A stretch of DNA of 64,000 nucleotides from contig CAWEKV010000001.1 of the NCBI GenBank assembly GCA_963809785.1, forward strand, positions 3,464,408 through 3,528,407, given 5' to 3'. The DNA comes from an uncultured Planctomycetia bacterium (GTDB lineage Bacteria > Planctomycetota > Planctomycetia > Pirellulales > S012-138). Shown piece after piece: positions 4,728 to 63,844 of the stretch. Within the stretch, counting starts at the first letter, position 1. Each line of letters starts with the position of its first letter. The notes below the pieces were generated by a model. It did not search any database. It saw nothing but the letters and a program-made list of their open reading frames with translations, and was not told where the DNA came from. Position numbers and translations under genes: made by a program.

Positions 4728-4847
4728 AACCACGAATAGTACGAATAACACGAATAAGAGGAGCAAGCCGAGCGATGGCGTGTTCGTCGCGAACTTGCGT
4801 CGTCGCAAATTCTGAGTTTCATTCGTGGTATTCGTGTTATTCGTGGT
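4728..4847. repeat. Hairpin with arms made of tandem ~9-nt units (ccacgaata/gtacgaata/acacgaata), ~62-nt spacer
   Basis: The left arm aaccacgaatagtacgaataacacgaata (4728-4757) is the near-perfect reverse complement of cattcgtggtattcgtgttattcgtggtt (4820-4847). It is AT-richer than its surroundings and lies in the GH20/ggt intergenic region. Confidence 0.85.
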
Positions 4848-4886
4848 TGTCCTTCTTCGCTTCAGGACACGGGAATATCGAGCCCG

Positions 4887-6493
4887 ATGATTGCGAATCG
4901 AACCAGGGCCGTCGTGGCGGGCCGGCACGGCGCCGTGGCCTCCGCGCATCCACTCTCTAGCCAGGTTGGGCTGGATTGCCTCCGCACCGGAGGCAACGCG
5001 ATCGACGCGGCGGTCGCCATGGCCGCGGCGCTCAACGTCGTGGAACCGTACATGAGCGGCGTCGGCGGCGCCGGCTTGCTGCTGCTCTATCTGGCTCGCG
5101 GCGAAACGAAGACTCTCAACTTCAGCGGCAACACGCCGGCCGCTGCCATGCCCGAGCAATTCACGCCGCAAAGCGTTGACGTTGGGCCGCGCGCCTGCTT
5201 GATTCCCGGCAACGTGGCGGGGTGGTTGGAGGCGCTGCGCGGCACGGCACCCAGCCGGCCACCGCGGTGTTTGCTCCCGCCATCCGCCTGGCCGAGGAAG
5301 GGTTCCCGCTGCACCCCCTGAACGTCCGCCTGATCGAGCAATCGCTGCCGCGGCTGAATCCTCCGGCCATGCAGATCTACGGAAGCGTGCCGCAGCGGAT
5401 CGGCGCCATCCTTCAGCAGCCGGAGCTGGCCCTTACGCTCCGCTCGATTGCCGAGCACGGCGCCGACTACTTCTATCGCGGGCCGCTCGCTCATCGGATC
5501 GCCGACTATGTCCAGTCGCAAGGCGGGCTGCTGACGCGCGACGATCTGGCCGGCTACGAGCCCCAGTGGCGGCAGCCCGTCGGCGTGACGTACCGCGGGC
5601 TGGAGGTCAAAACCTGTCCTCCCAACGCGGAAGGTTTTCAGATTCTCCAGACGCTCAAGCTGCTCGAATCGCGGGACCTCGGATCGCTGGGCCACAATTC
5701 CGCGGATTATATTCACCTGCTCAGCGAGGCCATGAAACTCGCCACCGCCGACCGGATTCGCTGGGGAGGCGACCCGAAGTTCCACGACGCTCCCTTGAAT
5801 CGTCTGCTGGCGGAAGACTACCTGGCCGAGCGGCGGAAGCGGATCGATCCCCTGAAGGCGTCCCGCAGCGAGGGCGAACGCTGGCGGGGCTCGCACGCGG
5901 CCGGGACGGTCTTGCCGGGCATGATCGAGGGCCTGACGACGCACCTGACCGCCGTTGACGCCGAGGGCAACGTGGCCAGCATCACGCAGTCGCTGGGCGG
6001 CGGGTTTGGCTGCGGCGTGGTCGTGCCGGAAACAGGAATCGCGCTCAACAACCTGCTGTTCTGGACGGAGATCGATCCGAGCTGCTTCACGCCGAACCTG
6101 ATCCATCCCGGCAAGCAATGGTCCTGCCCGATGGCCCCCGTGCACGTCTTTCACCCGGACGGCTTCTGGTTTTCGATCGGCACGCCCGGCAGCTACGGCA
6201 TCCTGCAAACGACGGTGCAAATGCTATTGAATATCGTCGAGTTCGAGGCCGATCCCCAGTTGGCCATCGATGCGGCCCGTTTTCGGATCTACGAAGAAAC
6301 CCGGATGCAGATCGAAGACCGCGTTTCGCGCGCCACCCGCGACGAGCTGACGGCTCGCGGACACGTGTTGGAACCGATCGGCGATTACTCGATGCTGGTC
6401 GGCGGCGGGCAAGCCGTGATGATCGATCGGCAATCCGCTGCGCGCCTGGCCGGCGCCGATCCGCGACGGGATGGCTATGCGCTGGCCTACTGA
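4887..6493 (+). CDS. ggt: Gamma-glutamyltranspeptidase family protein (one frame change near 5225)
   Basis: N-terminal part (4887-5321 ORF): HGAVASAHPLSSQVGLDCLRTGGNAIDAAVAMAAALNVVEPYMSGVGGAG. It continues in ORF 5222-6493 with FAPAIRLAEEGFPL and the autoprocessing-site region LTTHLTAVDAEGNVASITQSLGGGFG, then GTPGSYGILQT. Confidence 0.85.
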
Positions 6494-8994
6494 TTTGAGT
6501 GAATCTGTTGGGCCTTCAAGGAATGCGCGGGCGGCGCCTCGCCGCCCTCCGCTTGACCGAACGCCCGGCGAACTTCCGGGCGCGACAACTCCGAGAAGAT
6601 CCAAATGCCCAGCGCGATCCCTAGCGGAAAGCCAGGGTGAAGCGGCAGCATGGCCAAGACGGTGGCCGTTCGCACGAGCCGCCACGATTCGAGGTCCCAC
6701 AAACGCGCTCCACCCAGCCACATCAGTCCTGACAGCGGGATATTGATGACGAGCAGAATCGCGAGCCCCACCGCACCGTAGAACGCCGTGTCATCCCCGG
6801 TGACTTTTTCACTCAGCTTGACGAGGAGAGCTAGCAGGATCACCACGTTCAGGTTCGCCAAGACGATCAATAGCGACGCCGGCAGTTTGACGTACGACTG
6901 GGCCTGTGGATCGGGACGACGCCGCGCGCTGAGCGTCGGCTCGCGTGTGGTGGCTGATGGTGCCCCGTCGAAGGTCTGCACCTCGGTAGTCATCAGGCTA
7001 CCGGCCTCGTCCCTCGGCGTCGCCACTCTGGCCAAGGGCACCCGGTGCTTGGGCGATCGCGCCGCAGCTTGCGATGTGGACAGGCCCAGCAAGCGCCGCA
7101 GCGGCCGCCACGTACGGTGCATGAACAGGATTGTCCACAGGAACAGTACGAGGCTGAATTGCCCGGCGGCCCGCACGTCACGTTCGCTGGGGACGAAAAG
7201 CTGGCGCATGCCCTCACTGGCGAACCTGGCTGATACGAAGTATGGTTCGGTCTGACTTCGCCGACCCCAACTCTGTGGCGTCACCATCCAGGTACCGCCC
7301 GAGGGTGTTTTCACTCGCAAATCGCTCCAATTGGCGGGGTCGCGCCGTGGCAGCGGCTGATCCATTTCCAGCATCAGCACTTCGCCGTGAATCGCGACCA
7401 GCCGTGCCGGCACGCCGCCGAACCACCAGTCGGCGTTGTCCCCCTCGTGCACGAGAGGCGTTTTTTCAGGGGCCGTGGGGATCGTGACCGTCACGCCGCC
7501 GGGAACGGAGTCAGTCGCCGCGCGGTTCAACCAGGTGGCGCGGCGATACCAGATGTCGCCGTGGACCAAGGGCAGCTTTGGCACCCAGGGGATCGCCAGC
7601 AGCAGGAGCAGGGCCCCTGCGACGTAGTGTGCCCAGGCACGCCCCTTGGCCCGAGTCGGCCGGCTGGGATCCGCCGTCCGGCCCACGATCCAAAGCAAGC
7701 CGGCGAAGCCACCGATGACCAGGAAGAACCCTGCCACGGCCTGTTCGCTGAGCGCTGCTTCGGTGCTGAATTGAGCCCATCCCGCCAGGAGCAGCACCGT
7801 GGTCACCGCGGCGACCGCCAGATACCACCGCCACGCCAACGGGGCCTCGAGAAAACTCAGGACGCCGCCACCACGCTCTTGCTCGTCCCTACCGCGGCGC
7901 ACGAGCTCAGTCCTCGTTTCGCCAGATGCTCGTTGCACGTCCGGTCGTGATAAGACGGACAGGACCCAAACGCCCAAGGGAATTCCCAATGGAAAGGCGA
8001 GGCTTAAAGGCAGCATGGCTAGAATCGCTCCGGCGCGCGCCATTCCCTGCGATTCACCGCTGGCCATCCGGGCGGCACCAACGAGCATGACGCCCGATGA
8101 CGGCATATTCACTACCAGGACCGCGCCCAAGAACATCATCAGCGCCGCTTCGTCGAAGCCATCCGGATCGTTGTGATCGATTGCCGCGGCGACGAGGAAG
8201 GCCGCGGCCAGGCTCACCAGGTTGAACACCGCATACAGAGCCAGCGCCCAAGCCGGCCCTTTGAGGCGCGCCGTGAGCGCCGCCTTCAATGCCGCATCGT
8301 CAGCGGCAGGCGCGCCGAGGTTTGCTGTCGTTGCGGCCGGGGGCGATTGCTGACCGATCTTCTGAACATCGGTCTTTACCTCGCTGGCATGTTGGTATCT
8401 TTGCTCAGGCTCATGTTCCAGCGAGCGGATCGATGAAGTCGTGCTGCACTGCAGGGCGTCGCAGATTTGCGGCACGATCGCCAGGGCCTCGTCCGCCGCC
8501 AGTTGGCCGCCGGCAAGCACCTGCCGCAGCGTCGCTCCTTCGACGTATTCCATCAGGAAGTAATAGAGCCCATCGGCTTGCCCGAAGTCGTAGACAGCCA
8601 CGATGTGCGGATGGCTGAGCCGGGCCAGGGAGCGTGCCTCGCGCTGAAAGCGCTCGGCGAAGTCTGGCACGCTTCGCACTTCCGGCGGCAGCACCTTGAG
8701 GGCAACCAAGCGGTCCAAGACAGGTTGGCGGGCCTTATAGACTGCCCCCATGCCGCCACGGCCGATGAGCTCGAGGATCTCCAAATGCGGAAACCGCTGG
8801 GCCAGCTCGGCGATCGACGGCGGAGTGAACCCGCCGGGCGGCGTGGCAGCGGTTGGCGCATCATCCGGCGAAACCCCGCAGCCCGTCTGGCTCTCCCTCA
8901 AACCGCCATCGAGCAAGCACTTAGGGCATATCCCCTGGGGTGCTTCGGCGGCGATTTCTCCGCCGCAGGTAGGGCAACGACGAATGTCGGTCAC
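6487..8994 (-). CDS. Ser/Thr protein kinase-like polytopic membrane protein; kinase domain lacks its catalytic core (pseudokinase)
   Basis: GTG start at 8994 with AGGAG 6 nt upstream. N-terminal zinc ribbon CPTCGG..CPKC. Kinase subdomains I-V are present (IGRGGMGAVYKA, VALKVL, FQREARSLARL, LMEYVEG). After QICDALQ the sequence jumps directly to ..IRSLEHEPEQRYQHASEV. I found no HRD, DFG or APE motif anywhere in the 835 aa. The C-terminal two thirds are hydrophobic and contain an internally duplicated module ending ...GIPLGVWVLSVLSRPDVQRA / ...GIALGIWIFSELSRPEVRRA. Confidence 0.8.
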   Translation of the reverse strand: MTDIRRCPTCGGEIAAEAPQGICPKCLLDGGLRESQTGCGVSPDDAPTAATPPGGFTPPSIAELAQRFPHLEILELIGRGGMGAVYKARQPVLDRLVALKVLPPEVRSVPDFAERFQREARSLARLSHPHIVAVYDFGQADGLYYFLMEYVEGATLRQVLAGGQLAADEALAIVPQICDALQCSTTSSIRSLEHEPEQRYQHASEVKTDVQKIGQQSPPAATTANLGAPAADDAALKAALTARLKGPAWALALYAVFNLVSLAAAFLVAAAIDHNDPDGFDEAALMMFLGAVLVVNMPSSGVMLVGAARMASGESQGMARAGAILAMLPLSLAFPLGIPLGVWVLSVLSRPDVQRASGETRTELVRRGRDEQERGGGVLSFLEAPLAWRWYLAVAAVTTVLLLAGWAQFSTEAALSEQAVAGFFLVIGGFAGLLWIVGRTADPSRPTRAKGRAWAHYVAGALLLLLAIPWVPKLPLVHGDIWYRRATWLNRAATDSVPGGVTVTIPTAPEKTPLVHEGDNADWWFGGVPARLVAIHGEVLMLEMDQPLPRRDPANWSDLRVKTPSGGTWMVTPQSWGRRSQTEPYFVSARFASEGMRQLFVPSERDVRAAGQFSLVLFLWTILFMHRTWRPLRRLLGLSTSQAAARSPKHRVPLARVATPRDEAGSLMTTEVQTFDGAPSATTREPTLSARRRPDPQAQSYVKLPASLLIVLANLNVVILLALLVKLSEKVTGDDTAFYGAVGLAILLVINIPLSGLMWLGGARLWDLESWRLVRTATVLAMLPLHPGFPLGIALGIWIFSELSRPEVRRAFGQAEGGEAPPAHSLKAQQIHSNQ

Positions 8995-10563: not shown

Positions 10564-12594
10564 CTAGGGTTCTCCTTTCCAGACCTGCGCCAGGAGGCCG
10601 GGACGATGGAAACGGCGGCGGGTGGCGTCGTCGTCGATCAGCTTCAGGGTGCCCGGGTCGCGATAGGTGACGAACCGCCAGGCCCCTTCGGAACCGTCGA
10701 AGAAGCCCCTCGGGCGTGACGACCAGCCAGTCCTTGCCGGCGTCGAGGCTGTAGAGCCGGCAGCGTTCCTTGCCGGTGGCCGGGTCCCAGAGCCGGGTCG
10801 TGCCGTCCGTGGCGACGGTCCACACGTGCTTGCCGTCGCCGCTCAGGGCCACGCCCGAGACCGCCGCCGGCCTCCTGGAAGGTCTGGAGCTTCTTGGCGC
10901 TGGCCGCCTCCCACAAGTTCACTCCGGCGAGGACGTGCTTGTCGTCGCCGCTCAAGGCCACAGCTCAGGACCACCCCCGGGTAGGTCTGGAGTTTCTTGC
11001 CGCTGGCCGCGTCCCACAGGATCGCCGTCGCGTCATAGGACCCGGTGAGGACGTGCTTGCCGTCGCCGCTAAAGGCCACGCACGTGACCACGGACTTGTG
11101 CCCCTCGAAGGTCTGGAGTTTCTTGCCGCTGGCCGCCTCCCACAGGATCGCTGTGTTGTCAGCGGACCCGGTGAGGACGTGCTTGCCGTCGCCGCTCAGG
11201 GCCACGCCCCGGATGAGATTGGTGTGTCCCGCGAAGGTCTGGAGTTTCTTGCCGCTGGCCGCGTCCCACAGGCTCGCTGTCTTGTCCCACGACCCGGTGA
11301 CGACGCGCTTGCCGTCGCCGCTCAGGGCCACGCACTCGAGCTCGGTTGTCCCTGGAAGGTCTGGAGCTTCTTGCCGCTGGCCGCGTCCCACAGGATCGCC
11401 GTCTTGTCGTGTGCCCCGGTGAGGACGAGCTTGCCGTCGCGCGACAGGGTCACGCACCGGACCCGGCTGGTGTGCCCGTGGAAGTGCTGGACTTTCTTGC
11501 CGCCGGCCGCGTCCCAGAGCATCGCCGAGCTGTCCCTGGACGCGATGACGACGCGCTTGCCGTCGCCGCTCAGGGCCACGCCCGAGACCCAGGCGGTGTG
11601 CCCCTGGAAGGTCTGGAGTTTCTTGCCCGTGGCCGCCTCCCACAGGATCGCGGTGTGGTCCGATGCCTCAGAAAACTCCCCGGTGAGGACGTGCTTGCCG
11701 TCGCCGCTCAGGGCCACGCCCGCGATCTCGCCGGTGTGCCCCCGGAAGGTGCTGGAGTTTCTTGCCGCTGGCCGCGTCCCACACGATCGCCGTCTGGTCA
11801 TAGGACCCGGTGACGACGTGCTTGCCGTCGCCGCTCAGGGCCACGCATGATGATCCCGCGGTTCTCCTGGAAGGTCTGGAGTTTCTTGCCGCCGGCCGCC
11901 TCCCACAGGATCGCCGTCTTGTCTGTTGACGCGGTGACGACGTGCTTGCCGTCGCCGCTCAGGGCCACGCCCGTGACCGTGTCGGTGTGCCCCTGGAAGG
12001 TCTGGAGTCTCTTGCCTCCGGCCGCCTCCCACAGGACGGCCGTCTTGTCGGCGGACCCGGTGACGACGTGCTTGCCGTCGCCGCTCAGGGCCACGCTCGT
12101 GACCCAGTTGCCGTGCCCCTGGAAGGTCTGCAGTTTCTTGCCGCTGGCCGCGTCCCACAGGATCGCCGTCTGGTCCTTTGACCCGGTGAGGACGTGTTTG
12201 CCGTCGCCGCTCAGGGCCACGCTCGTGATCGCGGCGGTGTGCCCCTCGAAGGTTTGGAGTTTCTTGCCGCTGGCCGCCTCCCACAGGATCGCCGTCTTGT
12301 CATTGGAACCGGTGACGACGAGCTTGCCGTCGCCGCTCAGGGCGACGCTCGTGACCCAGGGTGGGTGCGCTGGAAGGTCTGAAGCTTCTTGCCGCTGGCC
12401 GCCTCCCACAGGATCGCCGTCGCGTCATGGCCCCCAGTGACGACGTGCTTGCCGTCGCCGCTCAGGGCCACACTGGTGATCCCGTTGGTGTGGCCCAACT
12501 GGAGAAACAACTCGGGTTGGGGCTCTTGCGCGGGGGCGAGGCCCTGCAAGCAGACGAGGACCAGGATGGACAGCCAGTGAGGGACGAATCGCAT
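10564..12594 (-). pseudogene. Secreted WD40 repeat protein (~14-15 near-identical blades); frame broken repeatedly
   Basis: Signal peptide MRFVPHWLSILVLVCLQGLAPAQ. Then many copies of GH...(V/I)T(S/G)VALSGDGKHV(V/L)TGS.D.TAILW(E/D)AASGKKLQTF(Q/E), read from minus ORFs 12337-, 11798-, 11322-, 10843-, 10644- and 9929-10852. C-terminal tail ..DAGKDWLVVTPEGFFDGSEGAWRFVTYRDPGTLKLIDDD..LLAQVWKGEP*, with the stop at 10564-10566. Confidence 0.8.
10850..12480. repeat. 126-bp tandem repeat array (coding; one WD40 blade per unit)
   Basis: Strings such as gtgcttgccgtcgccgctcagggccacgc and gaaggtctggagtttcttgccgctggccgc recur with a ~126-nt period across the whole interval. Confidence 0.85.
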
Positions 12595-15715: not shown

Positions 15716-15865
15716 TGGGACACGTCAATGCAAGCTGCATGCCCTGATGGTTCTGCCATTTGCCGCCTGCCCCAAGTGAGCGACGCGATGAGCTGTCCCG
15801 CGCTCCGTGTCACTTCCGCGAGTCTCGCACCAAGCTTTGTTGAAATACGCTGGGCGGCCGCACGA

Positions 15866-15930
15866 GCCCGACGCGCAAGCGAGGGAGGAGCGAGGACAGA
15901 CGGCGATCCTCCCTCGCTTGCGCGGCGGGC
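15866..15930. repeat. GC-rich palindrome, family gcccgacgcgcaagcgagggagg / cctccctcgcttgcgcg.cgggc
   Basis: 23-nt arms (15866-15888 and 15908-15930). The same core recurs at 29722-29813, and half of it at 35802-35848. Confidence 0.85.
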
Positions 15931-15934
15931 TAGT

Positions 15935-18067
15935 GTGGTTCTTCGACAGAGCCTGGTCCTGATCCTGCTGGGAGCAGCCACTGCGCACGCTGATCCGGGG
16001 GTCGTGGATTTCAGCGGGGACATTGGTCCGCTCCTGACCGAGAAATGCGCGAGCTGCCACGGCCCGAAGAAGCGGGAAGGTGGTTTGCGACTCGATGTGC
16101 GCGGCGCCGCGATGGAGGGGGGTGACTCCGGGCCGGTCATCGTGCCTGGCTCAGCCCCGAAGAGCGAGCTGGTTCGCCGGCTCACTTCCGAGGATCGCGA
16201 GAAACGAATGCCGCTGGGTGGCAAACCCCTGGAACGCGAGGAAGTTCTTCGAATCCGCCACTGGATCGACCAGGGCGCCAAGTGGCCCGATACGCCGGAG
16301 GGAACGCAAGACCCGAGCGACCATTGGGCCTTCCGCCCCATCCGCCGCCCGGCGCTGCCGCGAATCGCCAACCCGGCCTGGCCCCGCAATGCAATCGACC
16401 ATTTCGTCCTGGCCAGGCTGGAACGAGCCGGGGTCAGCGCGTCGGTGGAAGCCGATCGCCTGGCGCTGGTCCGCCGGCTGAGCCTCGATCTGACCGGCCT
16501 GCCGCCGGCACCGGATGAGATGCGGTCCGCGCTTCGCGATCAGTCGCCGAACTGGTACGAGAAGGTCATCGATCGGCTGCTGGCCAGTCCGCACTTCGGC
16601 GAGCGCTGGGGCCGGCACTGGCTCGACCTGGCCCGCTTCGCCGAGAGCGACGGCTACGAGAACGACAACCTCCGCCCCGACGCCTGGCGCTTTCGCGACT
16701 GGGTCATCGACGCCCTCAACCGCGACCTGCCCTTCGACCAGTTCACGATCGAGCAGCTGGCCGGCGACCTGCTGCCCGAGAGGCGATCGCACGCGGCTGA
16801 CCGAGCTGAGCAACGCGTCGCCACGGGCTTCCACCGCAACACGCTCTGCAACACCGCCGCGTCGGGCGACAAGGAGGAGTTCCGCACCTACGCCGTCAAG
16901 GACCGCACCGACACCACCGGCCTGGTCTGGCTGGGCCTGACGCTCGGCTGCGCCAAGTGCCACTCCCACAAGTACGACCCGATCTCGCAGCGCGAGTACT
17001 ACCAGCTCTACGCCTTCTTCAACAACACCGACCACGACGACGTGGCCGTCGCCGGCGGCAAGGCCATGACGCTCAAGGCGGCCGCCCGCCCGACGCACGT
17101 CCACCTCCGCGGCAACTTCCTGCAGCAAGGGCGAAGCGGTGGCGCCCGGCGACGCCCGGCTTCCTGCCGCCGCTTGCAGCCGCGCGGCAAGGACGCCCGA
17201 CCGGCTCGACCTGGCCCGCTGGCTCGTCGATCCCGCACACCCGCTCACGGCGCGCGTGGCCGTCAACCACGTCTGGCAGCACCTGTTCGGCCAGGGCCTC
17301 GTGCCGACGCCCGAGAACTTCGGCCCCAGCGGCGCAGCCGCCCAGCCATCCCGAGCTGCTCGACTGGCTGGCCGCCGAGTTCGTGCGCCTCGGCTGGAGC
17401 CGGAAGGCGCTGATCCGCACCATCGTCTCGTCGGCGACCTACCGCCAGTCGTCGCGACATCGAGCCGACGTGGCGGCGCCGATCCGGACAACGCGCTGCT
17501 TGGCGCGGCAGAACCGGTTCCGCGTCGAGGCCGAGATCGTCCGCGACCTGGCCCTGGCGGCCAGCGGCCTGCTCGACGCTCGCCTCGGCGGGCCGTCGAT
17601 CGTGCCGCCCTTTCCCCGCGAGCTGCCGACCGGCAGTTCACCGGCCGAGTCGCTGAAGACGCCGACGGCGGACCGCCACCGCCGCGGCCTCTACATCCAC
17701 GTGCAGCGCACGCTGTCGCACCCGATGCTCTCGGCCTTCGACGCGGCCGACGGCAACCAGCCGTGCCCGCAGCGCGACCGCAGCGTCACGCCCGATGCAG
17801 GCCCTGACGCTGCTCAACGACCCGATCTTCGTCGAGTGTGCCCGGGCGCTGGGCGAAGCGCATGCGGCCGCGGCCGCCCGACGCGGACCGCCGGCTGGAA
17901 CTTGGCTTTCAGCTGTGCCTGGGCCGGCTGCCCGACGGACGCGGAGCAGGCCGTGCTGACCGAGCTGGTCGCAGAACCAGAAGCGGCTCGGCGCCGCAGA
18001 AGCAGTGGTCTGGGCCGGCGTGGCCCGGACGCTGCTGAACCTGGAAGCGTTCACCACGCGGGAGTGA
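15935..18067 (+). pseudogene. PSCyt1 + DUF1549 + DUF1553 (PSD) family protein; several frame changes
   Basis: Putative GTG start, then VVLRQSLVLILLGAATAHA (signal). LLTEKCASCHGPKKREGGLRLD (planctomycete cytochrome c motif). DUF1549: IDHFVLARLE..LSLDLTGLPP..RWGRHWLDLARFAESDGYE. DUF1553: LGCAKCHSHKYDPISQREYYQLYAFFNN. The rest is read from ORFs 17139- and 16957-18504, ending ..LNLEAFTTRE*. The start is uncertain (ATG alternatives at 15728 and 15788). Confidence 0.8.
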
Positions 18068-26842: not shown

Positions 26843-26850
26843 CAAGGGCC

Positions 26851-26915
26851 GAACATCGAACATCCAATGTCCAACATCGAACGTCGCAATGTTCGATGTT
26901 CGATGTTCGATGTTC
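26851..26915. repeat. Hairpin with arms made of tandem 7-nt units (gaacatc / gatgttc)
   Basis: gaacatcgaacatccaatgtccaacatcgaac .. gttcgatgttcgatgttcgatgttc, starting 9 nt after the stop at 26842. Confidence 0.85.
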
Positions 26916-41569: not shown

Positions 41570-41606
41570 GGCGGTATGGTCCTCAGATGGCTGACGATAC
41601 TTGTAT

Positions 41607-41703
41607 CACTTTGCATTTTGCATTTTGCGTTTTGCACTTTGCACTTTGCATAGACCGCTCGCTCCAGCCGGAATGCAAAATGCAAATTGAAAAATGCAAA
41701 ATG
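41607..41703. repeat. Hairpin with arms made of tandem 7-nt units (ttttgca / tgcaaaa) in the rpsL-rpsG spacer
   Basis: cactttgcattttgcattttgcgttttgcactttgcactttgca .. aatgcaaaatgcaaattgaaaaatgcaaaatg. Strongly AT-rich compared with the flanks. Confidence 0.9.
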
Positions 41704-41732
41704 GGTTCGTTGCGACACCGTGATGGCGGGGC

Positions 41733-42104
41733 CTAGCTCGGTTGCTTGGCTCCGTATCGGCTACGCGCCTGGCGACGGTTCTGCACGCCGGTGGTGTCCA
41801 GCGCCCCGCGAATCACTTGATACCGAACGCCCGGCAAATCGCGAATGCGCCCGCCGCGCACCAGCACGATCGAGTGTTCCTGCAAGGCGTGCCCTTCGCC
41901 GGGGATGTAGACGGTGACTTCCTTGCCGTTGGAAAGCCGTACGCGGGTGATCTTTCGCAGGGCCGAGTTGGGCTTCTTGGGGGTCATCGTTTTGACCTGC
42001 AAGCACACGCCCCGCTTCTGGGCGCAGCGGTCGAGCACGGCGGCCTTGCTGGAGCGCCGCTGAACGCGCCGCGGCTTGCGGACAAGCTGATTGATGGTAG
42101 GCAT
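41733..42104 (-). CDS. rpsL: 30S ribosomal protein S12
   Basis: Intact 123-aa ORF: [61 protein letters not shown]. Confidence 0.97.
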
Positions 42105-42191: not shown

Positions 42192-42217
42192 GGCCGGCCG
42201 CATCGGCCTCCGCCCGA

Positions 42218-42288
42218 GTCTGAAGTCTGAAGCCCGAAGCACACGTCGGGCTGACGCCTCGACGCTCGCCACCTGACGCCTCGACGCT
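42218..42288. repeat. Short direct repeats: gtctgaag x2 and ctgacgcctcgacgct x2
   Basis: gtctgaagtctgaag at 42218-42232; ctgacgcctcgacgct at 42251-42266 and again at 42273-42288. Confidence 0.8.
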
Positions 42289-43896: not shown

Positions 43897-44006
43897 CTTG
43901 GAGTGCGGCGACTCGTCGCCGCTTTGGGATTCTGGCATAACGCGTGTACGACCTCGGCCCTATCAGCTCCAAAAACCTAAAGCGGCGACGAGTCGCCGCA
44001 CTCCAG
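43897..44006. repeat. Second copy of the nested inverted repeat with core gcggcgactcgtcgccgc
   Basis: cttggagtgcggcgactcgtcgccgctttgggattctgg (left arm) against ccaaaaacctaaagcggcgacgagtcgccgcactccag (right arm). Confidence 0.9.
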
Positions 44007-45627: not shown

Positions 45628-48300
45628 TCAATGGTTGAACGTGAACTCGGTGGAGTTGAACAGGCCCCACAGGATGTCGCCGTAGACCATCTGCGCGGCG
45701 TTCGCCTCGGTAGCGCTGCGCGGATCGCGGCCAGCTGCTGCTCCAGGGTCTTGATCTGCTTCTCCAGCGTGCGGGCCGCGTCCTTGCCGTCCTTCGGCAG
45801 CTTGCTCAGGTCCGTCCTTCAGCTTGCTTGAGCCGCTCCTCGCCGCGGCGTGTAGTTCGGGTCCAGCCGGGCCTGCAGCGCCGGCCAGCTGCTCGACGCG
45901 CTCGGGGTCGCTCGTCTCGCGGCGGACGATCGTCGACGAGCTTCTTCACCTCGCCGGCCGTCGGCTTGCGGCAGAGCGTCCGCACGTACAGCTCCTCGAT
46001 GATCTCCTCGGGCGACTTCTTCTCGGCCAGCAGCGCCGGCGATCAGCTTGCTCTGGGCGATCTTCTGCGTGATCGTGTCGCCGTTGACCAGGTGCAGCGC
46101 CTGCGACAGGTTGGCCTCGCGGTTCACCTCGCACGAGCAGGCCGTCTCGCGCGGGGCCCGGCCGAACGTCGTCAGGAAGTAGGTCGAGACCTCGCCGGTG
46201 TGGATCTGCACCGCCCGCGTGCCCGGCGGCGACTGCGGGAAGCGGTCCTCGGTGCCGGTGACCCGCGTGATCGTGTCCAGCAGCACCTCGGCCCGCAGCC
46301 GGCGGACGTAGCCGTGCGAGAAGTACGCCTCGTCCAGCTCGTTCGTCGGGTTGGTCGCCGCGGAGAGCTGGTACGTCCGCGAGTTGCAGATGTCGCGGAT
46401 CAGCTTCTTCTTGTCGAAGCCGTAGCCGGCCAGCTTCTTGCCGAGCTCTTCGAGCAGCTCCTTGTTGCTCGGCGGGTTGCTGATGCGCACGTCGTCCACC
46501 GGCTCGACGATGCCGCGGCCGAAGAAGTGCGACCAGATGATGTTCGCCATCGTCTGCGCGAAGGCGGCGTTGTCCGGCGACGTCAGCCACGCGGCCAGCG
46601 CCTTGCGCGGGTCCTTGCCCTCGACCTCCGGGGCGTCGCCGCCGAGGAACTTCGGCTTCATCCGCCGGCCGTCCACCGGGTGGGCGACCGTGTTGGCGGC
46701 GTTGTTGTTGGCGACCAGCACCTCGCGGCCCTCGACGCCGCGCTTCAGGTTCACGCCGGCGAAGAAGGCGGCGAACCCGTAGTAGTCGTCCATCGTCCAG
46801 CGGTCGAACGGGTGGTTGTGGCACTGGGCGCACTGGATGCGCGTGCCGAGGAACACCTGGGCGATGTCCTCGGCCGTCTTCTGCGGGCGTGAGCCGCTCG
46901 CGTCGCGGTGTACAGGTTCGCCGGCGGCGACTTGAAGTTGCTGCCCGTGCCGACGAGCAGGTCGGCGACGAACTCGTTGAGCGGCCGGTTCTGCGGCCAT
47001 CTGCTCCTTGACCCAGGCGGCGTAGGAGAACATCGCCTTGGCGTCGCGGCCGTACTGCGGCACCTGGTTGTACGCCCGGATGCGGAGCAGCTCGCCCCAC
47101 TTCATCGTCCACATGTCCACGAACTCGGGCCGGTCGAGCAGCGCGTCGATCAGCTTCGCCCGCTTCTTCGGGTCCTTGTCGGCCAGGAAGCGGTCGTACT
47201 CCTCGCGCGTCGGCGGCAGGCCGATCAGGTCGAGGTAGACGCGGCGCAGGAACGCCTCGTCCGAGCACAGCTCCGACGGGGCCATGTGCAGCTTCTTGAG
47301 CTTGTCGAAGACGAGCGTGTCGATGTAGTTGTGCTTCCGGCGTGTTCGGCCAGGCGAACTTGTCGTCGGTCGGCAGGACGATGACCTCGGAGCCGACGGT
47401 GAACTTGCTGAACCGGGCGAAGACGAACGCCCCGCCGCGGCCGCCGCCCTTGACGACGCCGTCCTTGTCGATGGCCGCGATCGCCTCGTTGTTGGTCATG
47501 TACAGCGCCAGCCGGGTCACGTCGCGGACCGAGCCGTCGGAGTACTTCGCCAGCACGACGGTCTTCTGCGTGCCGGCCCTTGCCGGCGAACACGACCTTG
47601 GACGGCAGCAGCTCGACGCCGACCGGCTCGGGCGTGTCGCCGCCGTCGTCCGGGGCGCCGGCCTTGCAGCCAGCGCAGCAGCGTCTGGTAGTCGTCGTGG
47701 TCGGTGTCGAAGAGCTTGCCGCCGGTGTGCGGCACGGCGCCGGTGACCTTCTCCAGCATCAGGCTCTTTTCGGGCACCGCCAGGTCGACGCGCCGGCCGA
47801 CGATCTGCCGGGTGAGGCGGTAGTAGTCGCCGGCCGGGTCGTAGCCGAACAGCGACAGCATGAAGCCGTCCTTGCCGCGGGCCGCCCCGTGGCAGCTGCC
47901 GTTGTTGCAGCCGTGCTTCATGAACATCGGCATCACGTCGAGCCGGAAGCTGACCGGCCGCGACTTGCGCCGCGTCCTTCACGACGACCGGCACTTCGGC
48001 CTTCAGGCCGCCGTGCTCGACGACCAGCGTCGTGCGTGCCGTCCCTCGCGGGGCGAGCGTCTGGCCGGTGAGCGCCGCCAGCGTCGGATCGGCCAGCCGC
48101 AGCTTCGCCGTCGGCGGTGACGTCGCTCGTCACGCCCTGGGCGTCGACGACCTGGACGACGACGCTCTGGCGGTCGTCCTGGCCGCGCAGCTCGACTGCG
48201 GCGGGGAAGACCTTCAGGCGCGGCCGGCGGCGTCCGCCCGGGCGGCGAGCGGCGAGGAGCAGCCGCAGACAGAGGTACGAGATCGCAGAACGCCTCGGTT
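45628..48300 (-). pseudogene. PSCyt2 + Ig-like (BIG2) + DUF1549 + DUF1553 family protein; many frame changes; 5' end approximate
   Basis: [21 protein letters not shown], ..[36 protein letters not shown].. (BIG2), FLRRVYLDLIGLPPTREEYDRFL..MWTMKWGELLRIR (DUF1549), TRIQCAQCHNHPFDRWTMDDYYGFAAFF..IRDICNSRTYQLS..RETACSCE (DUF1553). End ..DILWGLFNSTEFTFNH*. Confidence 0.8.
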
Positions 48301-48373
48301 ATCGTCAGCCGGCCACTCGCGAGCGGGATGCGGAGCGACTCGCGACGCTCAGCGATCTGAGCTCGCAGTCGCC

Positions 48374-51007
48374 TTACGGTCTCGTTTCGCGACCTGGTCG
48401 ACTTGCTTCTGCATTTCGTGGCCCGCGTTCCCGGCGATCGACGCGCAGCATGCCGTAGCCGCTCAGCTGCCGCACCGACTGGCCGTTGTCGATCACGGTC
48501 AGGTCCAGGACGACCCCCTGGTAGTTGCCGACCAGGCGTCTTCGGCGTGGCCCGCAGCGTGAAGCGTCACTTCCTTGTCGGCCGCGGTGATCTCGCGCGT
48601 CGGCTCGACCAGTTCGACGCCGCGCGGCAGGCGGGCCAGCGTCGCCTTCGCCTTGCCCGTCGAACGGCTGCAGGTGGTTGAGCTTGCACACCAGCGTCGC
48701 CGTCTTGCCGCGCTCGATCGACGTGCGGGCGATGCGGGCCTCGACGTGCGGCTCGGCCACGGTCAGCTGGAACGGCTGCGACGGCGACGTAGGTGCGGCT
48801 CTCGCCGTCGTTGTAGCCGCGCCGGCTCGCCGCCGCTCATGGCGGTCAGCGTGACCTGGTGGGCGCCGGCCGACGGCGTTGCGGGCCGCCCCGAGCAGGT
48901 ATGTCCCCTCGGTCTGGCCGGCGCGGACGGTGACCGGCGTCGCGGTGTTGACGCCGGTCGGCCTCCACTCCATCTGCACGGTCACCGGGCCGTCGAAGCC
49001 CTTGTCGCGGCGGACCTTGAACTTGAGGGCCATCTCGCCGTTCTGCACCAGGGCCGACTTCGGCTCCTCGACCTCGACGCGGAACGGGGCCGGCTCGGTC
49101 ACCGCCAGGGCCAGCTTGTCGACCGACGTGTGCAGGTAGTAGTCGTTGTTGCCGTAGGCGTTCATCAGGACGATCTGGCGGTAGCCGCTCGACGAGCGGC
49201 GCCTTGCCGCCGACCGGCCGGACGACCAGGTCGATCAGCGCCGCCTGCGGCTTCGCGTCCGCGGCGGCCTCGAACACGACCGGCACGCGCGTCATGCCCG
49301 GCGTCAGCTTCGGGGCGTGCAGCGTCACCCCCTCGGGCAGGTTCACGCGCGACCAGCTCCAGCTCGCCGTTGAACGGCCGGTTGGTGCTGAAGATCGCGA
49401 CCTGGACCGTTGTAGCGGTTCCCCGCCGCGACCGCGATCGCCTGCCGGAGCTGCGGCGTGAACTGGTTCTCCGGCTCCGGCGGCGATGTAGGTGTAGACG
49501 GCGTTCTCTTCCGGCCGGACCTCGACGCGGTAGACGTAGTCGCTGCCGCCCTCGCCGCGCTCGTCCTCGACGCCCAGCACGTACTCGCCGTCGGCCGGGG
49601 CGGTGAATTCGAGGACCGGGTCGAGCGTGTCGCGGTTGAGGCCGCCGGCCGGCGGCAAGCCCGAGCTGGTTCGGCCGCGAGTCGGTGGCCCGGACCGTGG
49701 CGGCGGCGTCCTTGCCGCCGACCGGCCTGACCCAGATCGACCGGATCGAGCGGCGAGCCCGAGGGCGTTGGCCAGGGCGTGGAATCGTGAACTGCTCGCC
49801 CTTCTTCGCCCGGAAGCGGAAGCAATCGACGTCGCCGGGCTTGCTCGATGATGCCGTTGAACGCGACCGGCAGGTCGGCGGCAGCGGCCGACGGCAGAGC
49901 GCTCGGGCGTGTCGTTCGGCTCGGCTTCGAGCACGTTCGGGAACGGCGACACGCGCAGCCGGTTCGGCGACGGGGCGGGCACGCCGTCGTCGGATCGACG
50001 GCGACGAACGGGAAGTCGCCCGGCGGTCCGCGGGCAGGCGGACGCGTCTGCGTCCCAGGCGCCGCGCGGGTCGCCGAGGACTCGGACCTTCAGCTTCGCT
50101 GCCGGCCTGGCCGCCGGCCGGGTAGATGGCCGGTCGGCCGGGCGAACGTGCCGACGTGCAGCCGGTACGTCTCGCCGGCGCCGTTGTACATGCTGTGCCG
50201 GACCTCGACGAAGTACGCCCCGTCGCGCTCGGCCAGGACCGACAGGACCGGGTCCTGCACGAACAGGGCCGAGTCGTCGGCGGCGGCGAGCTTCTTGCCG
50301 TCGGCGTCGTAGATCGCCAGGTGCAGGTCGGGGATGCCGCGATCGACGCCCAGCCGGGCGGCCTCGATCTCGGCCGAGACGCGCTGGCCGCGCTTCACCT
50401 CGATCCGGTACAGATCGACGTCGGTCGGATCGTTCAGCCGGCCGAGGACGGTGCTGTTGAGCGGGCACGGCCTTCGCGGTCTCGCGCTTGTCGTTGCGCT
50501 TCTGCGGCGGCTGCTCGTTCTCGTCCACGGTCGGGAACGGGCCGACGAAGAACCGCTGATACTCGGTCAGCGCCGCCGGCGGTGCGCAGCCGCAGGCCGT
50601 GCGGCGCCGAGCGGGCAGTCGTCGGCCAGCTTCAGCCGGACGCGGACGCGGGTGCCCGGCTCGACCGGCTGCTGGCGGCCGTTGGGCCCGACCTCGCCGG
50701 TCTCGACCGGCTCGATGGATTCGACGCGTGATGCCCGGCTCGTAGAACAGGACCTCCCGCGGCTCGTCGAGGTAGCGGCCGGTGAAGTCGACCTCGACCG
50801 TCGTGCCCGCGCTGCCCGCCGGGCGGCGTGAGCCGCGCCAGCCGCGGCGTGCCGGCCTGAGGCAGTGAACCACAGAGGCACAGACGCAACGCAGGCGGCA
50901 AAGAGGAAAGCACGTGAGCACTGCTCCGAGGAACGAGATCCGGCTGCGATGGCACGCTCTGGCATGGATGCGATGCTCGCATCGCTTGCGTCGTTCCCCG
51001 TGCTCAT
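48374..51007 (-). pseudogene. Large secreted protein with pre-peptidase-C-terminal-like and Ig-like repeats; many frame changes; start approximate
   Basis: Signal-like AFLFAACVASVPLWFTASG; ..LYRIEVKRGQRVSAEIEAARLGVDRGIPDLHLAIYDADGKKLAAADDSALFVQDP..YFVEVRHSMYNGAGETYRLHVGTF (PPC-like), ..GEYVLGVEDERGEGGSDYVYRVEV.., ..PFRVEVEEPKSALVQNGEMALKFKVRRDKGFDGPVTVQMEW... Read from minus ORFs 50090-, 48846- and 48374-. Confidence 0.55.
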
Positions 51008-51035
51008 CCGTGTCTCTGTGGTTCACCCTGCGTTC

Positions 51036-52387
51036 TCAACCAAGCAGGTCCTTGACCACCTCGCCGCCGTCGATGATCTCGATCGGCCGGCCGCCGGGGG
51101 CCATCAGCTCCTTGTCGGCGTTGATGCCGAGCTGGTGGTAGACGGTGGTCAGCACGTCCTCGACGCGGACCGGGTTCTCTTCCGGCTCGCTGGCGGTCGA
51201 GTTGGACGAGCCGTAGACGAGGCCCTGCTTGAAGCCGCCGCCGGCCACGGCCAGCGAGAACACGCGCGGGAAGTGGTCGCGGCCGGCCGAGGCGTTGATC
51301 TTCGGCGTGCGGCCGAACTCGCTGGTCACCAGCACGATCGTCGAGTCGAGCAGGCCGCGGTCGTCCAGGTCGCGGACCAGGCCGGCCAGGGCCTGAGTCG
51401 AGGCCCGGGGCCTGCCGCCGCATCGCGTTCTCGATGCCCGCGTGCATGTCCCAGCCGCCGTAGCTGACGGTGACGAACCGCACGCCCGCCTCGACCAGCC
51501 GGCGGGCCAGCAGGAACCGCGGGCCGGCCTCGGACGGGCCGTACTTCTCGCGGGTCGCGGCCGACTCCTTGTTGATGTCGAACGCCTCGCGGGCGGCCGG
51601 CGAGCTGATCATCGCGTAGGCCCGCTGGTAGAACTCGTCCATCGCCCCGAGGGCCTCGGCCTTGCTCGGCCTGCTTGCGGAAGTGGTCGTCCACGACGCC
51701 GCGAATCTCGCGGCGGGTGGCTGAACCGGCGGTCGTCGACGCCCGGCGGCAGCATCAGGTCGCGGACCTGGTAGTTCGCCGCGGCCCGGGTCGCTGCCGA
51801 TGCCGAACGGGCCGAACTGCGAGCCGAGGTAGCCGGTGCCGCCGTACTCGGTGGCGTTGGGGACGGCGACGTAGGGCGGCAGGTCCTTCCGCGGGCCGAA
51901 CTCGTGCGACACCACCGCGCCCGAGGCTGGGGTGCTCGATGGCCGGGCTCTTGCGGTAGCCGGTGTACATCGTGTAGGTGGCCCGGCCGTGGTCCGCTTC
52001 CTTGCCGGCGATCGAGCGGATGACCGTCAGCTTGTCGGCGACCTGGGCGAGCTGCCGGAAGTTCTCGTTGAAGACGACGCCGGGCAGCTTCGTCTTGGCG
52101 ACGCCGAACGGGCCGCGGTACTCCAGCGGGGCGTCGGGCTTCGGGTCCCACGATTCCTGGTGGGCCATGCCGCCGGGCAGGACGATCTGGATGACGCTCT
52201 TGGCCGGCGCCTTCCTTGCTCTCGTAGTTCTTCTGGTCGGCCCGGGCCTGCATGCGTGAGGAAGTCGCCCAGGGTCAGGCCGAGGGCCCCGACCACGCCG
52301 ACGCGGAGGAACTCGCGGCGGCCGGGCTTGCGGAAGTGGGCCGGGATCGTCGTTCCAGGTCACGACGTCTTTGGCGGTGGAGGTCAT
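51036..52387 (-). pseudogene. DUF1501 family protein; several frame changes
   Basis: From ATG 52387. [40 protein letters not shown] (ORF 51755-), [12 protein letters not shown] (ORF 51004-), [42 protein letters not shown] (ORF 51036-51335). Confidence 0.8.
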
Positions 52388-61594: not shown

Positions 61595-62091
61595 GTGAGT
61601 CAGCCGCCCTCCACGACCAAAGTGCCCACGCCCCAGCGGCCTTCGCGGGGCGTCGTGGCCGCCATCGACTACGGCGGGGTGCGGGTCGGCGTGGCCCTGA
61701 GCGACGAGGGCCGGACGATGGCCCTGCCTCACGCTACCTACCCGCGGACTTCGCAGGCCGCCGATGCGGCATGGTTCCGCCGGCTGGTGAAGGAATATCA
61801 GGTAACGCTGTTCGTCGTCGGCCTGCCGGTCCATCTGGATGGCCGAGAGAGCCAGGAATCGCGTGCGGCGCGGCAGTTCGGCCAGTGGCTAACGGCGGAA
61901 ACCCGCGTCCCCGGCGTGTTCTTCGATGAGCGCTTCACTACGGCCGAGGCCGAAGAAGTGCTGCGCGGCCAGGGCCTCACCGCCAAACGGCGCAAGCCGG
62001 CGCGACATGCTCGCCGCGCAGATTCTGCTGCGCGACTTTCTGGCTGCCGGCTGCCAGGGACAAGAAGCCCCCGGCGGACTGGATGATTGAG
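61595..62091 (+). CDS. ruvX: Holliday-junction-resolvase-like nuclease RuvX/YqgF (frame change near 62000)
   Basis: VVAAIDYGGVRVGVALSD..VTLFVVGLPVHLDGRESQESRAARQFGQWL..VFFDERFTTAEAEEVL. The natural C-terminus ..DMLAAQILLRDFLAAG..* is in the adjacent frame and ends at 62091. Confidence 0.8.
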
Positions 62092-62118
62092 GCCGGACAT
62101 CGAACCGTGCGGTCTCGG

Positions 62119-63844
62119 CTACAGCGCCTTGACGTAGACGACCTTGTCGTCGCCGGGCCCGTAGAACTCTTTCAGCACGGCCTCGCAGTGATAGCCGCAG
62201 CGTTCGTAGAAGGCTCGCGTGGGCTGGTATTGCGCACGGTTCGACGTCTCGATGTATACCCGCCGGCCGCCGGCGCCGCGGATGAGCCGCTCGGATTCCT
62301 CGAGTAGCAGCCGGCCGAGGCCGAGACGCTGGTGCCCTTGATCGACGGCAATCCAGAACAAGTCGAAGCTGCCCGCCGTGCAGGCGATGGGGCCGTAGCA
62401 GGCGTATGCGACCGGCCGGCCATTCAATTCGGCAAAGGCAAAGGAATAGCCCGATGCCTCCCCCTTGGCCAGCCGCTCTTCAACTAGCTCGACCGCCACA
62501 TCGCACTCCGCCGCGTAGAAGAAGCCGGTCGATTCGACAATTCGCCGCACCGCCGCCGGATCGGCAGTCAGGACGTCGTGGCGGAATGTCGGGCAGGAGC
62601 CAGGAGTCAGGGAACAGGAGTCAGACAACGGGCTATCCGTTTGCCTCCCCTGACCCCTGCCTCCTGATTCCTGACCTCTGCCTCCTGCCTCCTGATTCCT
62701 GCCTCCTGATTCCTGCCTCCTGACGCCCGCTTCCTCCACAATCCGCTCCATGGCATCCTCGTAGCTGATTCCCGCCCGCTGGAGCGCGGCCGTGTAGCCG
62801 GCGTCAGGGCTGAGGCAGGGGTTCGTGTTGATCTCCAGGATCCACGGCCCTCCGGCGCGGTCTACGCGAAAGTCCACCCGCACGTAGCCGCGGAGGTCGA
62901 AGACCTCCCAGCAGCGGCGGGCCAGCTCGCTGAGCCGCTCGACGAGCGGCCCGTCTTCCGGCGGAAAGTCGAATCGCCGCGGCGTCTGGTGGAACTCGAA
63001 GGAGGCGTCGTCCCACTTGGCCTCGTAGCCCACGATCCACGGCTTGCCGGCGGGGAAGGCCGAAAAGTCGATCTCCGCCGGCGGCAACGTAGTGGGCACA
63101 CTCCGTGAGCCGTGGCCGACGGCTAACGGATTGTGCCTGCCACCATCGGTCAATAGCGACAGGTTGAACTCGCGGCCTTCGATGAACCGCTCCGCGAAGC
63201 ACTCTCGCCCCAGCCGCGCGGCATGCTCCTCGACGCGGCGACGCAGCTCCTGGGCATCGGCCACGGTGACGATGGCATCGTCACCCAGCCCGAACGAGGC
63301 GTGCTCCCACACGGCCTTGAGGATGAACTGGCCAGGAGAGCTATCTCGCTCCGCAGAGGAGTCAGGAGTCAGGAGACTGGACTCAAGAGAGGCCGCGGCA
63401 CCTTGATTGCTGACTCCTGATCCCCAACTCCTGACTCCTGACCTCTGACTGCTGACCCCTGACTTTTCGACCCCGTACCACGGCGGCGTCGGCAGGCCGG
63501 CTTGCCGCAGGCGCTCCTTGGCCAGCAGCTTGTTGTTAGTGAGCCAGAGGGCCGCAGCCGAATTGCCGGTGTAGGGAAGGCCCAGCGATTCGAGCAGCGA
63601 GGGGAACACGTGCGCCAGCCGATCCCACCCGGCCAGCGACTCGACCAGATTGAACACCACGTCTGGCCGCAGGTCCACCAGCGACTCGCCGCGCGGCGGC
63701 CAGGTCCAGCGTGCAGTCCAGAGACTGGCAGTCGTGTCCGCGGCGCGAGAGGGCCGCCATCACTGCGTCGCGCTGCACCAGCACGTCCCCTTCGTCGGCG
63801 GCCGCGCCGGGCGCGACCGCGTTATGCACGACCAGCACGCGCAT
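62119..63844 (-). CDS. Fusion protein: D-Ala-D-Ala-ligase-like ATP-grasp domain + C-terminal GNAT acetyltransferase, with two hairpin-array insertions read in frame (frame change near 63690)
   Basis: MRVLVVHNAV.. (ORF 63536-63844), then ORF 62119-63678: DVVFNLVESLAGW..LPYTGNSAAALWLTNNKLLAKERL..ERFIEGREFNLSLL..YVRVDFRVDRAGGPWILEINTNPCLSPDAGY (ATP-grasp), then ..FWIAVDQGHQRLGLGRLLLEESERL..YIETSNR..TRAFYERCGY (GNAT). Confidence 0.75.
62591..62727. repeat. Intragenic hairpin array (caggagtcag / ctgattcctgcctcctg units) at the ATP-grasp/GNAT junction
   Basis: gggcaggagccaggagtcagggaacaggagtcagac .. cccctgacccctgcctcctgattcctgacctctgcctcctgcctcctgattcctgcctcctgattcctgcctcctgac. Translated as ..RRQESGGRNQEAGGRGQESGGRGQGRQTDSPLSDSCSLTPGSC.. 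Confidence 0.85.
63357..63464. repeat. Second intragenic hairpin array of the same caggagtcag family
   Basis: gaggagtcaggagtcaggagactggactc .. tgctgactcctgatccccaactcctgactcctgacctctgactgctgacccctgac. Translated as ..KSGVSSQRSGVRSWGSGVSNQGAAASLESSLLTPDSSAE.. Confidence 0.85.

Follow-up and report, generated by a model that had tools for sequence, protein, structure and literature searches.

Short-unit array hairpins in a planctomycete genome segment, its relatives and phages

Background

Tandem repeats of seven nucleotides have reportedly been noted in bacteria since 1990. The cyanobacterial heptanucleotide repeats known as STRR are said to have been described by Mazel and co-workers in 1990 and by Vioque in 1997, and the small dispersed repeats associated with them by Elhai and co-workers in 2008. 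In the gene for RNase P RNA, STRR arrays extend a helix; the heptamer arrays of cyanobacteria, and also genes, harbour very small nested hairpin elements, with function preserved. In this work we focused on a 64-kb stretch of DNA (66% GC; hereafter the window) cut from a 3.55 Mb planctomycete contig, through which alone the source genome is seen here. It holds eight hairpins (w1 to w8; Table 1), each made of two inverted tandem arrays of a short unit. With moderate confidence, we consider these loci to be members of several short-unit, mostly heptamer, tandem-array families, akin to STRR and to the GGGAATC arrays of Xanthomonas. In this planctomycete lineage an array usually stands near an inverted partner, with which it folds into a long hairpin.

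The Xanthomonas system is the nearest one described, and STRR the next. Each Xanthomonas genome holds 70-75 convergent pairs of GGGAATC heptamer arrays capable of forming stem-loops, with a strong bias to positions next to or over stop codons; array length varies between related species, but whether an array is single or one of an inverted pair usually does not (Rehm et al. 2015, PMC4692102). The window arrays share with them the tandem 7-nt units in a high-GC genome, the convergent close pairing and the proximity to stop codons (w2, w3, w5 and w6). Unlike Xanthomonas, which has essentially one G-rich unit forming G-quadruplexes (G4), the window contains at least six, mostly AT-richer units within 64 kb. 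Most of them are not G4-capable, and runs of G were found only in the GGGGTCAG-type variants of relatives. In-frame gene inserts, hairpins nested in hairpins and units common to phages also set the present system apart. As in the cyanobacteria with STRR, several heptamer families coexist in one genome and are mostly intergenic. The phylum and the base composition are different, and inverted pairing, reported to be rare for the G-rich heptamers of Nostoc, is the rule in the window.

Other comparisons are more distant. The REP (repetitive extragenic palindromic), BIME and REPIN elements of proteobacteria are multi-copy hairpin repeats (PMC3116915, PMC2817692). The window elements resemble them in forming hairpins, in lying past stop codons in co-directional spacers, in being multi-copy and in serving as targets for further insertion. 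REP arms are conserved imperfect palindromes of 20-40 nt, kept over their full sequence and linked to RAYT, whereas the window arms are tandem arrays of non-palindromic units with loops unrelated between copies. The (GATAGRA)n satellites of Chloroflexus are also derived from a heptamer (PMC6749651), one or a few units recurring at numerous loci per genome. Their description is of direct satellites, with neither inverted pairs nor in-gene copies reported, and the window has both. The Rickettsia palindromic elements (RPE), reportedly described by Ogata and co-workers in 2000, are palindromic repeats lying in frame within protein genes. The window shares with RPE the in-frame palindromic inserts, the tolerant loops and the sharing of inserts among relatives (w4 with locus L001, w7 with protein P0002). 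Unlike RPE, which have a fixed consensus of 100-150 nt, lack array arms and belong to an AT-rich obligate intracellular lineage, the elements described here are arrays of variable length in a planctomycete. What is new is the coexistence of unit families, the predominance of the hairpin form, the conserved in-frame copies, the nesting and the presence of the units in phages. A literature search found no description of such repeats in Planctomycetes.

Materials and methods

Arrays were identified by direct reading and with Tandem Repeats Finder (TRF). A heptamer array was defined as a 7-nt unit repeated head to tail in at least three copies. For a strict census of hairpins, two TRF arrays of equal period had to lie no more than 120 nt apart and to have reverse-complementary consensus units. 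DNA loci of relatives and phages carry L-numbers; the protein P0002 corresponds to the DNA locus L117, and P0003 is known as a protein only. L050 is a locus from a metagenome-assembled genome (MAG) of the Gemmataceae. L117 and L118 are identical in sequence and come from independent assemblies; the same is true of L081, L082 and L085.

The window was placed in the Planctomycetia by its Pfam matches (PSCyt1/2, PSD1 and DUF1501) and by its nearest relatives, which are Planctomycetia MAGs. The nearest genome in the species collection is MAG JBGQHD01 (L001 MoeA, 79% amino-acid identity; L081 RpsL, identical), and the RpsG of L084 is closer still to the window (97%). An Rfam scan of the window at the gathering threshold gave no matches, and a tRNA scan of it found none.

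Many genes of the window are split by frameshifts, which speaks for an indel-prone (long-read) assembly and against true pseudogenes. They comprise the genes for gamma-glutamyltranspeptidase (GGT, 4887-6493), UbiB (27553-29236), the C-terminus of MCH (34668-35789), Hsp70 (36730-38687) and SBP56 (42292-43774), together with the PSCyt/PSD/DUF1501 region (45819-51915) and the N-terminus of an ATP-grasp gene (63679-63845).

Results

Each of the eight loci consists of two inverted tandem arrays separated by 1-65 nt. The unit has a period of 7 at six of them, all six being heptamer arrays as defined above, and a longer one at w1 and w3. By the strict census the window has 6 pairs, and none turned up in any of 30 dinucleotide-preserving shuffles; as single-stranded DNA all eight hairpins fold far better than shuffled sequences (z from -2.4 to -9.6). 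The three copies inside open reading frames (ORFs) fold more weakly than most of the intergenic ones.

The period of 7 is specifically favoured over neighbouring periods. In 1.27 Mb of planctomycete loci we counted 50 arrays of period 7 against 2, 4 and 5 for periods 6, 8 and 10, and in 664 kb of phage loci 270 against 8, 25 and 10. Density differs widely between genomes: about 125 per Mb for arrays and 94 per Mb for strict pairs in the window, 26 and 14 per Mb, respectively, in assorted planctomycete loci (1.17 Mb), and essentially no arrays in planctomycetes at about 60% UbiB identity (235 kb).

A preliminary description of the window had listed the eight hairpins and proposed the census with inverted- and tandem-repeat finders reported above. 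All eight were recovered to within a few bases, and the units proved AT-richer than the genome, as it had said, in all eight arrays (mean difference from the contig, 0.20). Its range of 2-5 copies per arm is too narrow, with about 11 reached at 62649-62724, and some units were misspelled: 'caggagtcag' is the 7-nt unit CAGGAGT/GTCAGGR, and the 'cacgaata' array has a period of 9. The seven units that it held to be distinct reduce to about six families, gaacatc (26851) and gtccaac (34675) being variants of CSAAYRT, and GTCAGGR and CSAAYRT thus each occupy two loci in the window. It had also pointed to two related direct arrays. One of them (42217-42260) is a relic of the CTGAAGY family, whereas the other (31409-31480) is a repeat of another kind.

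The same units recur outside the window. GTCAGGR, present twice in the window, was also found in L010, in L050 as a full hairpin, in L081 and in L117, where four loci lie within 8.8 kb. CTGAAGY occurs in L074, in L081-L085 (three loci within 5.6 kb of L084) and at 42217 in the window. TTTGCAY is common to the window, L054 and L081-L083, and GGAATKC likewise recurs elsewhere. In the viral contigs of IMG/VR, three consecutive GTCAGGR units were found in 84 stretches; two control units with the same bases in permuted order gave 4 and 10, which makes GTCAGGR 8-20 times commoner than its controls. For CTGAAGY and TGCAAAR the viral scans were less specific, and microsatellites of giant viruses account for some of the TGCAAAR matches. 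The GTCAGGR-positive contigs belong to genuine phages: they encode a portal protein, an HK97 capsid, a prohead protease and a primase, and their GC content is mostly 0.55-0.68 (range 0.48-0.72). Their structural genes are separated by spacers full of heptamer arrays, of many units, and some arrays lie inside a large ORF (Table 1). A search with the portal protein gave a single named relative, annotated from Kiritimatiellae, which hints at hosts in the PVC (Planctomycetes-Verrucomicrobia-Chlamydiae) group. Adjacent arrays of two different units, e.g. ATGCTGA followed by CCCTGAC, recur in the phage contigs.

Table 1. Array hairpins of the window, related features and array-rich phage contigs. 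TRF periods are given in brackets; z compares folding with shuffled sequences.
Feature	Coordinates	Strand	Units or arms	TRF arrays	Spacer	z	Position
w1	4719-4857		YACGAATAR x3 / ATTCGTGKT x3; outer stem AAGGAAGGCAAC/GTTGTCCTTCTT, unique	4731-4757/4821-4847 (9)	63-65 nt, with inner stem	-9.6	between a hypothetical gene (3815-4579, +) and the GGT gene (from 4887, +)
w2	26847-26920		CGAACAT/CCAAYRT x5.3 vs ATGTTCG x3.9	26850-26886/26889-26915 (7)	2-4 nt	-6.0	between an 876-aa gene (+), 5 nt past its stop (26842), and a STAS gene (+)
w3	27436-27502		8-9 nt unit GGYGACAA(A) x2.8 vs TTGTCACC; weakest intergenic hairpin	27441-27464, second arm weak (8-9)		-4.2	begins 6 nt past the STAS stop (27430), upstream of UbiB/ABC1 (start 27553)
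w4	31960-32048	-	GGAATTC x4 and mixed GGAATGC/GGAGTTC	31974-31995/32015-32045 (7)		-2.4	inside the MoeA ORF (31619-33019, -)
w5	34672-34758		CSAACGT x5.4 vs GTTGGAC x5.4	34675-34712/34714-34752 (7)	1 nt	-8.3	26 nt past the true MCH stop (~34784, -), ends 32 nt before the tsaB-like start (34640, -)
w6	41605-41706		TTTGCAY x6 vs RTGCAAA x4.6	41610-41651/41672-41703 (7)	20 nt	-3.8	27 nt past the rpsL stop, ends 36 nt before the rpsG start
w7	62588-62727	-	GTCAGGR family, ~11 (10.9) units vs ~3 CTGACTC units	62649-62724 (7)		-4.6	inside ATP-grasp/GNAT ORF (62119-63678, -), linker between the two domains
w8	63355-63466	-	GTCAGGR family, 7.9 units vs 2.7	63357-63375/63410-63464 (7)		-2.8	same ORF, variable N-terminal linker
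CTGAAGY relic	42217-42260		AGTCTGA AGTCTGA AGCCCGA, then single inverted TCGGGCT				between SBP56 and rpsL
17-nt direct array	31409-31480	+	TGGTGTGATCGACGAAT x4.2; no inverted arm; outside the hairpin class
Phage contig L157	2758-11136
Phage contig L123	6321-9572
Phage contig L162	2199-4790
Phage contig L133	1108-7762

In L117 (and L118), at 3130-3370 and 5045-5245, outer GTCAGGR arms enclose an inner hairpin made of 8-mer arrays (GACGCGGR/CCGCGTC). Both composites carry the non-array junction ACGTTGAGA and the loop GAAGTYCCnGCGTCGCCGCG, and they occupy non-homologous positions of two neighbouring ATP-grasp genes. Since junction and loop are shared, whole elements have been copied between sites, by some transposition or by gene conversion between arrays, with a hairpin nested in the loop of another; this is shown once. 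The window orthologue of the 5045-5245 element, w7, is without the inner hairpin. A half-decayed copy of the nested composite was seen at 6825-6990 of L117.

The preliminary description had concluded that structure is kept and sequence is not. The shared architecture, the presence of several units within 64 kb and the differing loops bear this out; that each locus has a unit of its own is not supported, the same units being found at other loci, in other genomes and in phages. The 'different unit at almost every locus' is mostly the view that a small sample gives of a multi-family repertoire.

Orthologous loci, whose comparison had also been proposed at the outset, gave three outcomes. The first is retention. 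The MoeA insert w4 is common to the window and L001, at the same place and with related units: the 5' arm reads GGAATTC x4 in the window and GGAATGC x4 in L001, without a mismatch in either, and both 3' arms are mixed. The linker element w7 is common to the window and P0002/L117, with 62-72% identity by two measures, and the linker peptide of P0003 (GVRSQ...LLTPDS), read at the protein level, suggests the same element there. For w8, no array counterpart was found in P0002/L117. The second outcome is a different unit. The rpsL-rpsG spacer of L081-L085 holds a GGCTTCA/CTGAAGY hairpin where the window has TTTGCAY, despite RpsL proteins identical to that of the window, and the CTGAAGY relic of the window lies on the other side of rpsL from the full CTGAAGY hairpin of these relatives. 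The third is substitution by an ordinary GC-rich hairpin, observed in the MCH-tsaB spacer of L001 and upstream of UbiB in L087, a locus that is not syntenic there. A metagenome scan with UbiB yielded two close relatives only (L087 and L113); the relatives at about 60% identity serve as a negative set, and w2 and w3 are outside the orthologous comparison. A look-up of the exact STAS protein had no match.

The copies inside genes are kept in frame and free of stop codons, mostly with more complementarity lost than in the intergenic copies. The insert w4 adds 27 codons to a MoeA loop (KPGKPLWFG...LVFGLPG) that is variable among 80 orthologues and has 5-10 residues in most of them. For w7 and w8, only one of the six frames is stop-free in each case, namely that of the gene. 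Three copies of a TGA-containing heptamer block all three frames, and in keeping with this the CTGACTC arms on the sense strand are either short or broken up.

Further inserts were noticed in the same proteins. The MoeA surface loop repeatedly tolerates repeat insertions: it was hit independently in L007 (1185-1260), by a direct array of the heptamer CAAGYCT, and in L074 (10560-10650), by a REP-like palindrome, GGGTGGCACGCCC...GGGCGTGCCACCC. At 4600-4632 of L117, a perfect direct array (AGGATGC) x4.7 adds the in-frame peptide RMQDAGCRMQD to the ATP-grasp domain of the relative's protein. Read as CAGGATG, this unit matches the CsrA-binding repeat consensus, which may well be a coincidence.

Discussion

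The data lead us to propose a scheme in five steps for heptamer-array families that spread and are then filtered by their sites. Unit number and unit variant change independently in each arm, by slippage and homogenisation; such changes are visible in the unequal arms, with 2.6 and 7.9 units in L084 and about 3 and 10.9 at 62588-62727. The second arm may arise by inverted duplication of an existing array, through fold-back or template switching, as the mirrored unit variants and the unique outer stems suggest. In L081 the internal variant TCGGAC for TCAGGC is mirrored in both arms, as expected from inverted duplication of an already heterogeneous array, and this points to one arm copied from the other. 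Healing of a break by repeat addition at both ends is an unlikely origin of the arms, given that the L081 variants are mirrored between them. Whole hairpins, including a nested second array hairpin, are next copied elsewhere, as shown once in L117, the candidate agents being a transposition that depends on the hairpin, or ectopic gene conversion among arrays that have a unit in common. Copies last only where they are tolerated, i.e. in co-directional spacers past stop codons, in surface loops and in inter-domain linkers, as the sites catalogued here display, and those in genes stay in frame and stop-free while slowly losing complementarity. In the last step the intergenic copies would serve as REP-like 3' stem-loops within operons rather than as canonical terminators.

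Several observations weigh against this scheme. Copying of a whole element is represented by one clear case, in which the two genes lie 1.9 kb apart, so that gene conversion at short range would suffice and no true mobility need be invoked; apart from this case, elements with the same unit have unrelated loops. Pfam found no transposase or RAYT among the 40 larger ORFs of the 64-kb window, in line with the preliminary description, which had noted the lack of a RAYT/TnpA-like gene there. Neither a target-site duplication nor a conserved terminal tag was seen; on inspection, w2, w5 and the elements A, B and C of L117 were without the flanking direct repeats of a miniature inverted-repeat transposable element. 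Strains that are 99.6-99.8% identical show no change of unit number in the rpsL-rpsG hairpin, so slippage is not fast, and the sole difference between strains, 9 versus 4 units, sits in a recombined-looking stretch with diverged flanks. RNA folding of sense versus antisense strands gave no consistent asymmetry (5 of 8 favour sense) and is uninformative. Finally, the scheme gives no reason for the 7-nt period.

The position of the intergenic copies raises the question of a role in RNA. Five of the eight hairpins (w1, w2, w3, w5 and w6) lie in short spacers between co-directional genes, and all but w1 start 5-27 nt past a stop codon. Pfam confirmed the placement given in the preliminary description, with copies at gene ends, one between rpsL (S12, 41733-42104, minus strand) and rpsG (S7, 41099-41569, minus strand) and three in ORFs. 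The features of intrinsic terminators, a GC-rich stem and a U-tract, are absent from all of them: the stems are AT-richer than the genome and no run of T follows any. Terminator-like sites are not enriched in the window (16 against 10.7 +/- 3.3 expected), and a single weak one overlaps w5. The intergenic copies, which are not canonical terminators, probably act in the manner of REP, as stable 3' stem-loops inside operons.

A stronger version of this role holds that the hairpins were selected as operon punctuation at the RNA level, as 3' stem-loops whose effect is to keep upstream mRNA stable, to attenuate read-through or to tune termination-coupled translation, and that selection bears on structure alone, unit and sequence being free to turn over. 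We regard this explanation as unlikely, although it is the best placed of the alternatives. It agrees with the co-directional context and with the very strong folding of the intergenic copies. It also agrees with the relatives that have a hairpin at the same spot, with another unit (rpsL-rpsG) or of the ordinary GC-rich type, and with the phage genomes that carry arrays in nearly all spacers between structural genes. In E. coli, REPs play such roles. Against it stand the missing U-tract, the lack of enrichment of terminator-like sites and the copy inside rpsL-rpsG, where termination would do harm. For the three copies within ORFs a role at RNA 3' ends is implausible, many arrays of relatives and phages lack an inverted arm and are purely direct, and no G.U asymmetry in favour of the sense strand was found. 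Moreover, since planctomycetes at about 60% UbiB identity are essentially without arrays, the arrays are dispensable.

Somewhat more doubtful is a purely local genesis at each locus, by slippage and inverted duplication without any copying between sites, in which case the shared architecture would reflect a common mutational process only. The loops unique to each locus, the roughly six unit families in 64 kb, the unequal and independently homogenised arms, the mirrored variant of L081, the unique outer stem of w1 and the absence of a transposase among the 40 ORFs scanned would all be expected. Identical units at unrelated loci, in different Planctomycetia orders and in phages, would not be, nor would the excess of GTCAGGR over its permuted controls, the homology of the L117 copies A and B through their non-array parts, or the CTGAAGY relic and hairpin on opposite sides of rpsL in the window and its relatives. 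Local generation, which the preliminary description had preferred, thus stands as far as the arm dynamics are concerned; the invention of a unit at each locus, with no copying, is not supported.

It is improbable, but worth stating, that PVC-group bacteria and their phages have in the arrays a system common to the whole lineage, in which a dedicated process, dependent on structure or periodicity and advancing in 7-nt steps, writes them into cistron boundaries, and that they are then used as operon punctuation or as multivalent binding sites for RNA-protein interaction. Candidates for such a process would be hairpin-targeted copying or templated repeat synthesis during repair. The GGA-containing units CAGGAGT and CAGGATG, which resemble CsrA-type motifs, would be examples of such binding sites. 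If this were true, the array-free planctomycete relatives would lack the responsible gene.

We consider it very unlikely that the hairpins are REPIN-like non-autonomous elements moved by a RAYT or an IS200/IS605-type single-strand transposase encoded elsewhere. The two inverted arms with a spacer, the nesting in hairpin loops, the duplication of a whole element in L117 and the multi-copy families recall the REPIN/RAYT precedent (PMC3116915). The arms are tandem arrays, however, and not short palindromic REPs, the element ends show no visible conserved terminal tetranucleotide or cleavage-site motif, and the 40 window ORFs scanned include no Y1 transposase. A RAYT normally serves a single REP family, whereas here there are at least six units, which also occur in phages. 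Lastly, that the hairpins are an artefact of long-read sequencing and assembly has next to no chance of being right: at least six window genes are frameshift-split, so the assembly is indel-prone, but the same architecture is present, partly at orthologous sites, in independent short-read assemblies (L001, L081-L085 and L117/L118), and the in-ORF copies keep the reading frame, so that this explanation is effectively refuted and the hairpins are real.

Under the reading that we favour, of several array families akin to STRR and the Xanthomonas arrays, this planctomycete lineage is an unusually rich and tractable system for studying the origin, the 7-nt period and the function of bacterial heptamer arrays, with copies fixed in frame inside genes of essential pathways. 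As some relatives are rich in arrays and others free of them, comparative genomics can be used to search for the cause. The elements also have practical effects: they add low-complexity peptides to proteins, make planctomycete MAGs harder to assemble and their genes harder to call, and may influence how operons are expressed.

Other repeats of the window

The window also contains repeats of more conventional kinds. The 17-nt direct repeat TGGTGTGATCGACGAAT begins within the last codons and the stop of the DUF1501 gene, whose stop codon is itself therefore tandemly duplicated. One REP- or MITE-like hairpin family of about 110-130 nt (GGAGTGCGGCGACTCGTCGCCGCTTTGGGATTCT...) is represented at 33814-33944 and 43899-44005, and at 1085-1203 of L001; one of its copies lies 7 nt past the stop of the tsaB-like gene and is kept at the orthologous site of L001. 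A second palindromic family (CCACACCAACCCGACGCGTAAGCGAGGGAG...) occurs at 15858-15938 and 29722-29813. A related piece, CGCAGGCGAGCGAGGGAG, separates strain L083 (about 7470-7495), where it lies beside an AATGCAA array, from L081.

Two further structures touch the MoeA gene. Inverted repeats of the GGTCCGCACAGCGGACC type lie at 32703-32798, in the N-terminal part of the ORF, and have a 29-nt arm identical in L001. Just past the MoeA stop, a hairpin GTGGGGCACG...CGTGCCCCAC is found at 31560-31616; L001 has a different one at this place (GTGGGGTAGGC...CCTACCCCAC).

Two regions carry tandem repeats of a coding nature. Between 60726 and 60974, overlapping repeats of 9, 18 and 27 nt (GCAACCGTG-type), without a hairpin, are probably an in-frame coding low-complexity repeat. 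At 10975-12496, on the minus strand, a unit of 126 nt is repeated 12 times with 80% identity, which corresponds to a coding repeat of 42 residues, a WD40-like length.

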